NCBI RefSeq assembly: GCF_058153355.1
Contig: NZ_CM177019.1
Direction: 5' to 3' (one strand)
Length of the DNA: 64,000 bases
Part shown: piece by piece, positions 2,346 to 49,513 of the stretch
Position numbering within the stretch: the stretch's first letter is position 1
Layout of the letters: the number at the start of each line of letters is the position of its first letter
Position numbers and translations under genes: made by a program
Notes under the pieces: generated by a model
The model's database searches: none
Told to the model about the DNA's origin: nothing
What the model saw: the letters and a program-made list of their open reading frames with translations, nothing else

Positions 2346-3689
2346 TTAAAGCAAACCACAGCGACGTTTACTGCGTTCTTCCGCTTCCTGATAAAGCTGG
2401 AACTCATCCAAAACCGGGCAGCCCAACGCCTGCTCAAATGCTTCGCGACTGGCATTACCGTGACTGCGTGCCTGCGTTTCATTACCCAGATTTGACTGGA
2501 AGATCCCCGCCGCGCTAACGGGCAAGAAATCTTCATAGGTAATGGGTTGCGCCACTATCCAACCACGTTCAATTAAGGGCTGTGGATCGTCTCCGGGATG
2601 AATCGCCTGACGATGCGCCTCACCTGAAGGCGTCAGACGGTACCGGAACCATGCCAACCCTTGCTGACGCATTAAAAACTCACTGTCAGGAAAAGTGCGG
2701 AAGGTTTCCTGTAAATGCATTTGGTGAGTGAGATTATCCTGCCCGGTTCCAGCGTTCCGCAGTAGATCATCATACAGTTGTCGTCCTTTCGGCGTTAATG
2801 CCACGCCACGCTGCTCTATTTCACCAAAGCGCGCGGTATGCGTGCCCTGTTTCTGCCCCGCAAACAACACCTTCTCTTCCAGTGCTTTAAAGCTGGTCTG
2901 GCGTAGTAAAATCGGTACCTCGCGGCGCGGCGGCCCTTCGATCAGAATTTTGGGTTCAATTCCGCATTCAGGCATCATCGACTGCACACGGTCAATATCC
3001 AGCGTACGTGGCGTCAGGTGGTTGATATGGCATCCAGGAAAACAGACCACATCAGCAATCAGCCGATGTTCGTTATGCAAGGCGCGATAGGTTACTTCAT
3101 CCACCGTTGCTGACTGGTGCCAGCGAAACGTTTCCAGGGCTTCCTGCACAAACTCCTGTGCCTGTGTTTCGTTAAAACCGCCCAGCTGCTCATACTCCTC
3201 TAACAGTTGTCGACAACGTGGGGTGAAGATATCGCGCTGACGCAGAATCTCCGCCGCTTTCTGGCGCAAAAATTCGTTCTCGATAAGCTCCAGGCGGAGT
3301 AATGAGGTAAAAACGCGGAAGGGATTACGCGCCAGAGAAGCATCATCAATGGGCCGAAATGCTGTGGAATGTACCGGCACGCCCGCCTGCGAGAGATCGT
3401 AATAGCTCACCGGGTACATCCCCATAATGGCAAACATCCGCCGAAGAGTAGCAAGCTCTTGTGCGGTCCCGACGCGAATTGCCCCATGACGTTCAACATT
3501 CAGTCGCGCCAGCTCGTCTGCATTTACCATTTTTTCGTGCAGTTGAGGATTGTTTTCCAGCACAGCCAGATTCACATCAGCTACCAGTTCCAGCAGCGTG
3601 CCGTACTGCGGAACTTCTTGCTGGTACATGGCTGACATTGCCTGCGAAAACTGTTCCCGAATCTCATCCGCCGTGATGCTGTCCGCCAT
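2346..3689 (-). CDS. ydcJ: DUF1338 family protein YdcJ
   Basis: 447-aa ORF, divergent from ydcI; matches remembered YdcJ. Confidence 0.9.
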   Translation of the reverse strand: MADSITADEIREQFSQAMSAMYQQEVPQYGTLLELVADVNLAVLENNPQLHEKMVNADELARLNVERHGAIRVGTAQELATLRRMFAIMGMYPVSYYDLSQAGVPVHSTAFRPIDDASLARNPFRVFTSLLRLELIENEFLRQKAAEILRQRDIFTPRCRQLLEEYEQLGGFNETQAQEFVQEALETFRWHQSATVDEVTYRALHNEHRLIADVVCFPGCHINHLTPRTLDIDRVQSMMPECGIEPKILIEGPPRREVPILLRQTSFKALEEKVLFAGQKQGTHTARFGEIEQRGVALTPKGRQLYDDLLRNAGTGQDNLTHQMHLQETFRTFPDSEFLMRQQGLAWFRYRLTPSGEAHRQAIHPGDDPQPLIERGWIVAQPITYEDFLPVSAAGIFQSNLGNETQARSHGNASREAFEQALGCPVLDEFQLYQEAEERSKRRCGLL

Positions 3690-3905
3690 AATGTCTGCCT
3701 CCAGTGGTCAGTAATCTGGAGTGTAGGTAACCGCATTCACTCTGGCGGGAAGAATTTGCAAACTGTGATCTCGCCGCGAAAACATCAATATTATCCATTT
3801 TGCTGTAACACAATTGCTTTAATTGTTAATAATATTTTGCAATCAAGTTATCATGATCAAACAACTTCACTTGTCAGCGACACCGCTTCGTTTTTAACAT
3901 CGCTT

Positions 3906-46424: not shown

Positions 46425-47798
46425 TTATTTTAATAACCGCACCCGGCACGTTTTTCCTTTAATTTTACCGCCCTGTAACTGTTTCCATGCTTTATGAGCA
46501 ACAGCCTGACGCACCGCGACATAGACATGCGCCGGATGCACGGCGATTTTGCCAATATCTGCGCCATCAAGCCCGATATCTCCTGTCAGCGCACCTAATA
46601 CATCACCCGGGCGCATTTTGGCTTTTTTCCCGCCATCGATACATAACGTTGCCATTTCTGCTTCCAGCGGCACAATGGAACTATTAACTGGCGGCGTTTG
46701 CCAGTTAAGTTTTATCTGCAACATGTCAGAAATGATATTGGCCCGCTGTGCTTCTTCCGGGGCACAGAAACTGATCGCCAGACCGCTATTTCCTGCACGC
46801 GCTGTACGCCCGATGCGATGTACATGAACTTCAGGGTCCCACGCCAGTTCAAAGTTCACTACCAGCTCAAGCGATTTAATATCAAGACCACGCGCAGCAA
46901 CATCCGTCGCAACCAGCACACGAGCGCTACCGTTAGCAAAACGTACCAGGGTCTGATCGCGGTCACGTTGCTCCAGATCGCCATGTAACGACAATGCACT
47001 TTGCCCTATGTCATTCAGCGCGTCGCAGACAGCCTGACAATCTTTTTTGGTATTGCAAAACACCACGCAAGAGGATGGCTGATGCAAACTTAATAACCGT
47101 TGCAACAGCGGAATTTTGCCTTTGCTGGATGTCTCATAAAATTGTTGTTCAATGGGAGGCAGAGCATCTGTTGAGTCAATTTCAATCGCCAATGGATCGC
47201 GTTGAACTCGTCCGCTGATTGCGGTGATGGCTTCCGGCCAGGTTGCCGAAAACAGAAGCGTCTGTCGAGATGCTGGCGCAAAACGGATAACATCATCAAT
47301 GGCATCGCTAAATCCCATATCCAGCATGCGATCGGCTTCATCCATCACCAGCATATTCAACGCATCCAGTGATACCGTGCCTTTTTGCAGATGGTCCAGC
47401 AAACGCCCCGGGGTTGCCACGATAATATGCGGCGCATGTTGCAACGAATCACGCTGCATACCGAACGGTTGACCACCGCACAAAGTCAAAATTTTGGTAT
47501 TTGGCAGAAAACGCGCCAGCCGACGCAATTCACCTGCCACCTGATCCGCCAGTTCACGCGTAGGGCACAGCACTAAAGCCTGGGTCTGAAATAGCGACGC
47601 ATCAACTTTCTGTAGCAGCCCGAGGCCAAAAGCCGCCGTTTTGCCGCTGCCGGTTTTCGCCTGCACGCGAACATCTTTTCCGGCAAGGATCGCCGGAAGC
47701 GCGGCAGCCTGCACCGGCGTCATAGTTAAATAACCCAACTCATTAAGGTTCGTGAGTTGGGCGGGAGGCAAAACATTCAGGGTAGAAAAAGCGGTCAC
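46425..47798 (-). CDS. dbpA: ATP-dependent RNA helicase DbpA (DEAD-box, 23S rRNA-specific)
   Basis: 457-aa ORF with AKTGSGKT Walker A and DEAD motif (MDEADRM); matches DbpA. Confidence 0.95.
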   Translation of the reverse strand: MTAFSTLNVLPPAQLTNLNELGYLTMTPVQAAALPAILAGKDVRVQAKTGSGKTAAFGLGLLQKVDASLFQTQALVLCPTRELADQVAGELRRLARFLPNTKILTLCGGQPFGMQRDSLQHAPHIIVATPGRLLDHLQKGTVSLDALNMLVMDEADRMLDMGFSDAIDDVIRFAPASRQTLLFSATWPEAITAISGRVQRDPLAIEIDSTDALPPIEQQFYETSSKGKIPLLQRLLSLHQPSSCVVFCNTKKDCQAVCDALNDIGQSALSLHGDLEQRDRDQTLVRFANGSARVLVATDVAARGLDIKSLELVVNFELAWDPEVHVHRIGRTARAGNSGLAISFCAPEEAQRANIISDMLQIKLNWQTPPVNSSIVPLEAEMATLCIDGGKKAKMRPGDVLGALTGDIGLDGADIGKIAVHPAHVYVAVRQAVAHKAWKQLQGGKIKGKTCRVRLLK

Positions 47799-47828
47799 AA
47801 TCTGTTCTCGTGGTCATCGACGCAAAAA

Positions 47829-48002
47829 TTAGCAAGCGCGTATCCTCGCAGATCTACGCTCACGATGCGACAATTTAATCGGTTCTTCATCGGGTGGTGG
47901 GTCAGGCATGGGTTGCGGGCGAGGGATTGGATCGGGCACTGGAACAGGATCGCCAGGAATCGGTTCAGGGACAGGAATTTGCAAATAAATGAGTGTCGTC
48001 AT
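47829..48002 (-). CDS. candidate small proline-rich protein (57 aa)
   Basis: ORF MTTLIYLQIPVPEPIPGDPVPVPDPIPRPQPMPDPPPDEEPIKLSHRERRSARIRAC with strong SD (GGAGGG, 5-nt spacer); below ORF-track cutoff, translated by hand. Confidence 0.3.
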   Translation of the reverse strand: MTTLIYLQIPVPEPIPGDPVPVPDPIPRPQPMPDPPPDEEPIKLSHRERRSARIRAC

Positions 48003-48059
48003 ATTTCCCTCCGGTCATTGGGTGGACTCTTAAAGGGTAGACGCTGATATATAACAGGC

Positions 48060-48181
48060 AAAAAAAAGCCGACTCATCAAAGTCGGCGTCGTACGAATCA
48101 ATTGTGCTATGCAGTAATTCAAAAAAGGAAGTAAGACAATATGGAGCGCAACGCCCATCGCTTGACGTTGCATTCACCTGC
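48060..48181 (-). ncRNA. fnrS: FnrS sRNA (FNR-activated, Hfq-dependent)
   Basis: minus strand reads GCAGGTGAATGCAACGTCAAGCGATGGGCGTTGCGCTCCATATTGTCTTACTTCCTTTTTTGAATTACTGCATAGCAC...GCCGACTTTGATGAGTCGGCTTTTTTTT, recognised as FnrS with intrinsic terminator. Confidence 0.85.
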
Positions 48182-48216
48182 AAGAGAGATATTGCCCTGA
48201 ATGGGTAGAGAGTTTA

Positions 48217-48230
48217 TTGACTTCGCTCAA
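48217..48230. promoter_or_regulatory. putative FNR binding site of the fnrS promoter
   Basis: TTGACttcgCTCAA matches FNR consensus TTGATnnnnATCAA at 8/10 positions, centred about 42 bp upstream of the inferred fnrS 5' end. Confidence 0.5.
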
Positions 48231-48276
48231 ACTTTGCGGCGTTTTTGTATACAGACCGCCGGAAAAATTGCTTTTG

Positions 48277-49281
<1,005 letters not shown>

Positions 49282-49513
49282 TTATTTTGTAGTCTAGCCT
49301 TCTGGCCCTGTTACGCAACATCTCATCACCCCATTACCCTGAAATGATTAATAAAATTCTGTCTAAATTGAATACAAAAAGCAAAATGCTTTTCCATATA
49401 CAAACCGTGTGAAGTGTTAAATAGCGTCTATCATTATCAGAATTATCTGATCATATGACGTGGCTTTTTGCGATCGGATAGCAACAAAAATTGATAAAAA
49501 TAACGGGATCTCA

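Follow-up and report, generated by a model that had tools for sequence, protein, structure and literature searches.

The window analyzed here is a stretch of 64,000 nucleotides from contig NZ_CM177019.1 of NCBI RefSeq assembly GCF_058153355.1. On its minus strand it carries a short open reading frame whose neighbors are FnrS and zntB upstream and dbpA downstream, an order that is also found in a RefSeq locus (Table 1). An earlier note, made from the sequence alone, had placed a candidate small-protein gene on the minus strand downstream of the FnrS terminator, and this position is confirmed, the ATG being located 62 nt past the FnrS 3′ end. The encoded peptide is MTTLIYLQIPVPEPIPGDPVPVPDPIPRPQPMPDPPPDEEPIKLSHRERRSARIRAC (57 aa), 16 residues of which are prolines. 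Its proline-rich part holds seven D/E residues vs. one K/R, while the tail has six K/R in 16 residues, so the description of a PxP-type peptide with a basic tail given in the same note holds as well. The note had also reported a Shine-Dalgarno (SD) sequence GGAGGG with a 5-nt spacer. The motif is present as stated; the spacer is 4 nt when counted from GGAGGG and 5 nt if the core is taken to be GGAGG, which is a trivial difference.

Table 1. Positions of genes and sequence elements around ynaL in the window.
Feature	Position	Strand	Description
dbpA	46425..47798	minus	ATP-dependent RNA helicase, GTG start; from ORF listing, RefSeq and conserved synteny
ynaL-dbpA spacer	47799..47828	minus	30 nt; weak dbpA SD-like GAGA (47806..47809)
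ynaL CDS	47829..48002	minus	57 codons plus TAA, ATG start; from ORF listing and sequence
Invariant block 2	47835..47855	minus	AGATCTGCGAGGATACGCGCY; codons for RSARIRA (AGA TCT GCG AGG ATA CGC GCY)
Invariant block 1	47865..47888	minus	GAAGAACCGATTAAATTGTCGCAT; codons for EEPIKLSH (GAA GAA CCG ATT AAA TTG TCG CAT)
Acidic (xP)n proline-rich segment	47880..47978	minus	ynaL codons 9-41
Conserved core of (xP)n segment	47889..47951	minus	ynaL codons 18-38, including DPPPD
Shine-Dalgarno sequence	48007..48012	minus	GGAGGG, followed by AAAT and ATG
Putative ynaL promoter	48031..48061	minus	TTGCCT (48056..48061), 16-nt spacer, TACCCT (48034..48039)
-10-like box	48031..48041	minus	TCTACCCTTTA, holding TACCCT
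FnrS sRNA gene	48064..48181	minus	Rfam RF01796, 134.8 bits
FnrS terminator	48087..48068	minus	hairpin and T8 run
zntB	48277..49260		upstream of FnrS
ynaN	49274..49321	minus	15 codons; RefSeq; 13 nt upstream of the zntB GTG start

The ORF is ynaL, a genuine, translated and annotated small-protein gene. Its product matches the Pfam family PF23677 with 136.9 bits (E = 2.1e-40; gathering score of the family, 27 bits), residues 1-57 being aligned to profile positions 1-57. The 57-aa string is identical to that of YnaL from E. coli K-12, and the two DNA sequences differ at three positions, each of them synonymous. The K-12 gene also shares the position between fnrS and dbpA, the SD sequence and the start codon, while the window has one more nucleotide between ynaL and dbpA. 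Among NCBIfam profiles, only TonB and proteins like it were matched, below threshold and by composition. When 601 nt around the ORF were used as a query, 5392 of 5426 complete E. coli genomes matched, and in all the rows sampled the RefSeq label under the match was “ynaL: proline-rich small protein YnaL” or “protein YnaL”. The suggestion that the ORF might correspond to a small protein annotated in E. coli was thus correct. At the nucleotide level, the region 47700..48300 shows 97-98% identity to most of the 5392 matching genomes and 99.7% identity to a single strain, 2020CK-00188, a pattern which suggests that the window derives from an Escherichia lineage that is sequenced less often. An identical YnaL is encoded in a metagenome-assembled genome labelled ‘Proteobacteria bacterium’ (L002).

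The protein has been detected experimentally on two occasions. Nakahigashi et al. (2016; PMC4909307) list an identical 57-aa peptide as entry IVP7 in Table S5 of their tetracycline-inhibited ribosome profiling (TetRP), and IVP7 was one of five sORFs picked for genomic Venus fusions. VanOrsdel et al. (2018; PMC6001520) placed ynaL, with the identical 57-aa sequence, between fnrS and dbpA (K-12 coordinates 1409308-1409481), and included it among the 36 sORFs that gave an immunoblot band from chromosomal SPA-tag fusions. The same authors noted a positive result for ynaL in tetracycline-inhibited ribosome profiling as well, and a possible operon with dbpA. Both experiments named in the earlier note as checks of its candidate, ribosome profiling and epitope tagging, are therefore already on record with a positive outcome. 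In the light of the peptide identity, the PF23677 match, the RefSeq annotation and the published detection, the flagged ORF is correct but known: the gene has been annotated, assigned to a Pfam family and experimentally detected since 2016-2018. The material on ynaL that is new here is limited to its linkage to FnrS, its stand-alone relatives, the inferred promoter and the nucleotide-invariant blocks at its 3′ end. Our literature search returned no functional study of YnaL.

Selection on the ynaL reading frame and on its 3′ end

For the selection test we used 29 loci from reference genomes, with an ungapped core of 42 codons and pooled Nei-Gojobori estimates. Variable columns were found at 12, 12 and 28 of the 42 first, second and third codon positions, respectively. 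The dN/dS of ynaL was 0.17 vs. 0.09 for codons 2-120 of dbpA, and the two shifted sense frames over ynaL gave values of 1.9 and 2.4. In the proline-rich core, comparison of Enterobacteriaceae with Erwiniaceae/Phytobacter gave a pN of 0.04-0.15 and a pS of 0.42-0.86, and non-proline residues (D, I, R/Q/T, Q, and M) were conserved across the families at near saturation of synonymous sites. The ynaL reading frame is under purifying selection, and conservation at the codon level across Enterobacterales, the third check named in the earlier note, is borne out by these values. A coding signature was seen in about 35 loci from many genera, which makes the ORF far more than a chance occurrence. Constraint is unevenly distributed along the protein: in the YnaL alignment the first ~15 residues vary freely and the stretch from D18 to C57 is nearly invariant.

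Several natural length variants of the proline repeat were observed (L009 3001-3141; proteins P0053 and P0112). A 46-aa version with 11 residues fewer occurs in an E. coli strain, another E. coli variant has 42 aa, and in Salmonella a 70-aa variant carries a duplicated PDPRPHPQPM unit. The 46-aa and 70-aa variants remain in frame, which fits repeat slippage under coding constraint.

The two blocks at the 3′ end of ynaL (Table 1) behave differently from the rest of the gene. They are separated by nine variable nucleotides and together show a synonymous change in 1 of 11 invariant-residue codons, vs. 201 of 206 in dbpA codons 2-300. No synonymous variation at all was found in block 1 among the 29 sequences, and its core, CCGATTAAA.TGTCGC, was invariant in 13 genus-level sequences. 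Block 2 contains a 19-nt invariant run, while the longest such run in 900 nt of dbpA is 5 nt; it includes an internal GAGGA, and its rare codons AGA, AGG, and ATA are kept in 27-29 of the 29 sequences. The invariance held when Klebsiella, Raoultella, Kosakonia, and Leclercia were added (~30 sequences, >10 genera). These data imply that the 3′ ~57 nt of ynaL are under an extra nucleotide-level constraint, i.e., that they contain an overlapping element. The constraint is as strong as that of an sRNA and offers a handle on how dbpA is expressed. The blocks are absent from the distant loci L036-L039, including the region upstream of dbpA in L037, and the tail that contains them, EEPIKLSH...RSARIRAC, occurs only in the clade with dbpA 14-30 nt downstream.

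A number of candidates for the overlapping element were tried and rejected. The region 47700..48070 gave no Rfam match with E <= 10. Mimicry of the hairpin-92 region of 23S rRNA by the ynaL 3′ end or dbpA leader, as would be expected of DbpA autoregulation, reached a score of 14 vs. 16.6 +/- 2.3 for shuffled sequences. Pairing of FnrS with the blocks was likewise rejected: the full-length duplex was not better than shuffles, and among 3000 background 30-mers the best 30-nt windows reached only about the 6% quantile. A putative hairpin formed by the two blocks (UCGCAUC, 9-nt variable loop, GA(UC)UGCGA) is not supported: changes in Kosakonia and Raoultella break its pairs, and since its stems are invariant, covariation is impossible. 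Both a repeated element and a universal dbpA upstream element were discarded, the former because E. coli genomes hold one copy of each block and the latter because the blocks do not precede dbpA in L037. Readings of the blocks as sigma-54, sigma-E or sigma-70 promoters were examined by inspection and failed in spacing or key bases, or were not conserved in Enterobacter. Finally, there is a 31-aa ORF in an alternative frame (47795..47890, minus strand). Its start is an ATG within GAT-GAA of ynaL, and its stop is the TGA in the GTGA with which dbpA begins. It ends there because the spacer is 30 nt in the window; in K-12 the spacer is 29 nt and the frame is not conserved. Such an ORF was rejected as the cause of the synonymous constraint, given that spacers of 14-30 nt shift its frame.

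Upstream signals, linkage to FnrS and distant relatives

An SD-like purine run and the ATG are conserved across the L001-L030 loci. The run is mostly GGAGGG, with AAAGGG, AGAGGG, GGAGGC or AAGGGG in a few of them. Further upstream, a -35-like TTGCCT abuts the FnrS terminator and is followed at a fixed distance by the -10-like box. The geometry TTGCnn-16 nt-TACCCT was found in 28 of 33 loci, with a spacer that varies in sequence and is fixed in length. By inspection, Klebsiella and Raoultella, which the matching script had missed, have the same geometry with TACGCT, and three Citrobacter loci show a spacing of 7 nt rather than 16 nt. A simple promoter scan called no sigma-70-type promoter in the window and no promoter-like site in 47500..48500; in L037 it did call the homologous site (TTGCCA-17-TATGCT). 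From this positional conservation we infer that ynaL is probably transcribed from a promoter of its own, whose -35 element would directly adjoin the FnrS terminator.

The box resembles the extended -10 consensus for sigma-S, KCTAYRCTTAA (Weber et al., 2005, as quoted in PMC5650638), in 9 of 11 positions. Exact 11/11 matches to the consensus as quoted there occur at the homologous site in Raoultella (L033 1954-1964) and in a Mixta-type locus (L038 2464-2474), with no others in the fetched loci. Matches with two mismatches to this quoted consensus are not unusual, as 84 were observed in the window vs. 79 expected. We hypothesize that the promoter might be sigma-S dependent. An alternative role of the CCCU in the box, pairing with the ynaL SD sequence as an anti-SD, was rejected: it would involve just 4 bp (-2.5 kcal/mol) and showed no informative covariation. 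A -10 element is the better explanation of the box.

In a homologue search across 5.8 billion proteins, 162 matches were obtained, and all 120 of those listed carry PF23677. The genera among the matches listed were Escherichia, Citrobacter, Salmonella, Enterobacter, Klebsiella, Raoultella, Kosakonia, Leclercia, Lelliottia, and related ones. Searching 1.84 billion representatives exhaustively with an HMM gave 36 matches at E <= 0.001. The family is very small and confined to Enterobacteriaceae and Erwiniaceae. Several distant members (Mixta, Erwinia, Phytobacter, Scandinavium, and unclassified Enterobacter) keep the core SDPxPTDPVPxPDPIPxPQPxPDPP and end otherwise, e.g., with ...DPDPRPIVDPPPHR. 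The versions of L036-L039 end in ...DPPPH(M/R), which places a second PPP near the stop codon.

In these four distant loci, too, FnrS (111-133 bits) lies immediately upstream of the YnaL-like ORF, and the same synteny was seen in RefSeq, reference-genome and added loci. What follows downstream is different. In L036, L038, and L039 (Phytobacter, Mixta, and Enterobacter-like; about 2300-2760) it is a hairpin and then a ttcA in convergent orientation, without dbpA. In L037 (Erwinia-type; about 2350-3860) the ynaL-like gene is followed by a terminator-like hairpin with a T-run, by ttcA and then by dbpA. The constant partner of ynaL is the FnrS locus, not dbpA. We conclude that ynaL is an ancient stand-alone gene linked to FnrS, and that the part of its product under selection is the acidic (xP)n core, which is shared by Erwiniaceae and Escherichia. 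The nucleotide element at its 3′ end may relate to the derived ynaL-dbpA arrangement.

The junction with dbpA

Klebsiella and Raoultella have 14 nt between ynaL and dbpA, and those of the L001-L030 loci that were measured have 23-30 nt; the spacer of the window (TAATTTTTGCG) and that of K-12 (TAACTTTGCG) have the lengths given above. A CGAGA-N-TTGTG motif at the dbpA start is conserved. A single terminator-like match was found at this junction, a 5-bp stem at 47849..47832 that is weak and overlaps the ynaL stop codon; other genera do not conserve its T-tract. As no promoter was seen between the two genes and the terminator-like stem is weak, co-transcription of dbpA with ynaL is likely. Translational coupling of the two genes is plausible, given the GTG start of dbpA and its weak SD-like GAGA. 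Folding of the junction gave z = -0.13, so a stable structure sequestering the dbpA start is not supported, and the consensus structure (-10 kcal/mol) contained no compensatory pairs. DbpA itself remodels the peptidyl-transferase region of 23S rRNA. Our literature search returned no description of dbpA regulation, and ynaL, dbpA, and fnrS are not mentioned in the text or in the supplements consulted of the 3′-end maps of Adams (2021).

The YnaL protein and competing explanations

We consider the overall account probable (roughly 0.8), in which ynaL is a genuine, translated gene under purifying selection that directly follows the FnrS terminator, and in which it would have its own promoter, encode a free acidic rod protein, require EF-P for its synthesis, form an operon with dbpA, and have a dual-use 3′ end. 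The functional part of the protein would be the conserved acidic (xP)n core. In the proline-rich part all four proline codons are in use and 10 of 10 invariant-residue codons vary synonymously. An AF2 model built on the family alignment had a pTM of 0.23; its residues 21-40 reached a pLDDT of 91-92 and contained neither helix nor strand, and this region is thus predicted to be an extended, polyproline-II-like rod rather than a globular fold. No sequence relatives of YnaL were found among solved structures. A fusion model of YnaL, linker and DbpA had a mean pLDDT of 40 and was uninformative as a test of contact between the two proteins. We propose that an acidic (xP)n segment of ~25-30 residues may form an extended rod in a free protein and serve as a rigid ligand for a partner. 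That YnaL acts in this way, with the X-Pro rod as a rigid binding surface, is somewhat more probable than not.

Runs of prolines stall ribosomes, and EF-P-dependent polyproline proteins have at least three consecutive prolines or a strong XPP/PPX context. YnaL contains DPPPD at residues 34-38 (PPP codons 35-37), so its synthesis would be expected to depend on EF-P. Most relatives share DPPPD, and E. albertii and some Citrobacter have DPSPD. The change of PPP to PSP in these species implies that such dependence is not universal. In the Escherichia-Salmonella-Klebsiella-Enterobacter clade ynaL would be the first gene of a ynaL-dbpA operon, and its last ~57 nt are most plausibly cis-acting on dbpA expression. 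A more specific version, in which 47835..47888 encodes the basic tail of YnaL and at the same time acts as a new cis element that couples translation of the proline-rich, EF-P-demanding ORF to the expression of dbpA, is a speculative proposal to which we give a low probability. If true, it would represent a sensor of translation capacity wired to DbpA, a ribosome-assembly factor.

The strongest competitor would reduce ynaL to a leader uORF of dbpA, whose slow translation at PPP or xP runs (through EF-P or proline supply) and at rare codons gates dbpA by coupling or by protection from Rho and whose peptide has no function. Only 14-30 nt separate the ynaL stop codon from the dbpA GTG with its weak GAGA, the scan found no separate dbpA promoter, and the conserved rare codons AGA, AGG, and ATA would suit slow translation. 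The conserved last ~40 residues correspond to about the length of the ribosomal exit tunnel. The mRNA of the proline-rich part has 43 C vs. 18 G in 102 nt, and Rho sites are C-rich and G-poor; this composition, however, follows trivially from the CCN codons. There are precedents for short leader ORFs upstream of a larger gene in TnaC (tnaCAB), SpeFL (speF), and MgtP/MgtL (mgtCBR and mgtA), and YnaL shares with them Pro codons or PPP, rare Arg codons, and a C-rich RNA. It differs from them in that it also exists without the downstream gene, and alternative RNA structures or a terminator are not supported. A position always upstream of the regulated gene is found in the Escherichia-Klebsiella clade and not in L036-L039: the Mixta, Phytobacter, and Enterobacter-like loci have neither dbpA nor any other gene on that strand after the YnaL-like gene, and in the Erwinia-type locus a hairpin and ttcA intervene. 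That ynaL is kept without dbpA downstream speaks against a role as a mere dbpA leader. Furthermore, the non-proline residues are kept across families at near-saturated synonymous sites, tagged YnaL accumulates to a detectable level, the PPP is not invariant, and the junction is without a stable or covarying RNA switch. We regard the leader explanation as improbable, and prefer a protein-coding gene whose 3′ end carries an additional element.

The composition of YnaL could also point to an antimicrobial-type proline-rich peptide that binds the ribosomal tunnel or DnaK, or to a TonB-type spacer that spans a compartment. It shares PRP and PxP motifs and an extended conformation, the latter from the AF2 model, with oncocin, Bac7, and apidaecin, and its sub-threshold matches include the polyproline region of TonB. 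Ribosome-targeting proline-rich peptides are strongly cationic, and oncocin, Bac7, and apidaecin are imported, whereas YnaL is made in the cell, its proline-rich segment is acidic, and no homology to them was detected. The likeness to the TonB proline-rich spacer (PF16031; NF008084) lies in the prediction of an alternating X-Pro rod. The scores are far below the cut-offs (NF008084, 20.8 bits vs. 315; PF16031 TonB_N, 11 vs. 33) with just the Pro-rich stretch aligned, and TonB has a membrane anchor and a C-terminal TonB domain, both lacking in YnaL, so the likeness is compositional and not homology. The N-terminus of YnaL is short and not conserved, with no signal peptide or anchor suggested. 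We consider either function very unlikely.

A further explanation is that the ORF is no gene, that what is conserved between FnrS and dbpA is a non-coding element of RNA or DNA, and that the open frame is incidental. It draws on the 3′ third, where conservation of nucleotides could yield that of amino acids as a by-product. The proline-rich two-thirds show the opposite in their synonymous variation, and a dN/dS of 0.17 was seen only in the ynaL frame and in the antisense frame that shares its wobble positions. Together with the conserved SD and ATG, the in-frame length variants, the TetRP start-site signal and the SPA-tagged protein, this leaves the no-gene explanation with hardly any credibility. 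Least credible of all is a real gene on the other strand, a 96-aa plus-strand ORF at 47757..48047, which is long and open because CCN codons are read as NGG, so that no stops are possible and an open frame is to be expected as a by-product, and which has a dN/dS of about 1.1 and neither annotation nor a family match.

A second small ORF in the neighborhood, ynaN, is full of rare codons (AGG, AGA, AGG, CTA, and ATA), a composition that would fit a regulatory role as a uORF of zntB.
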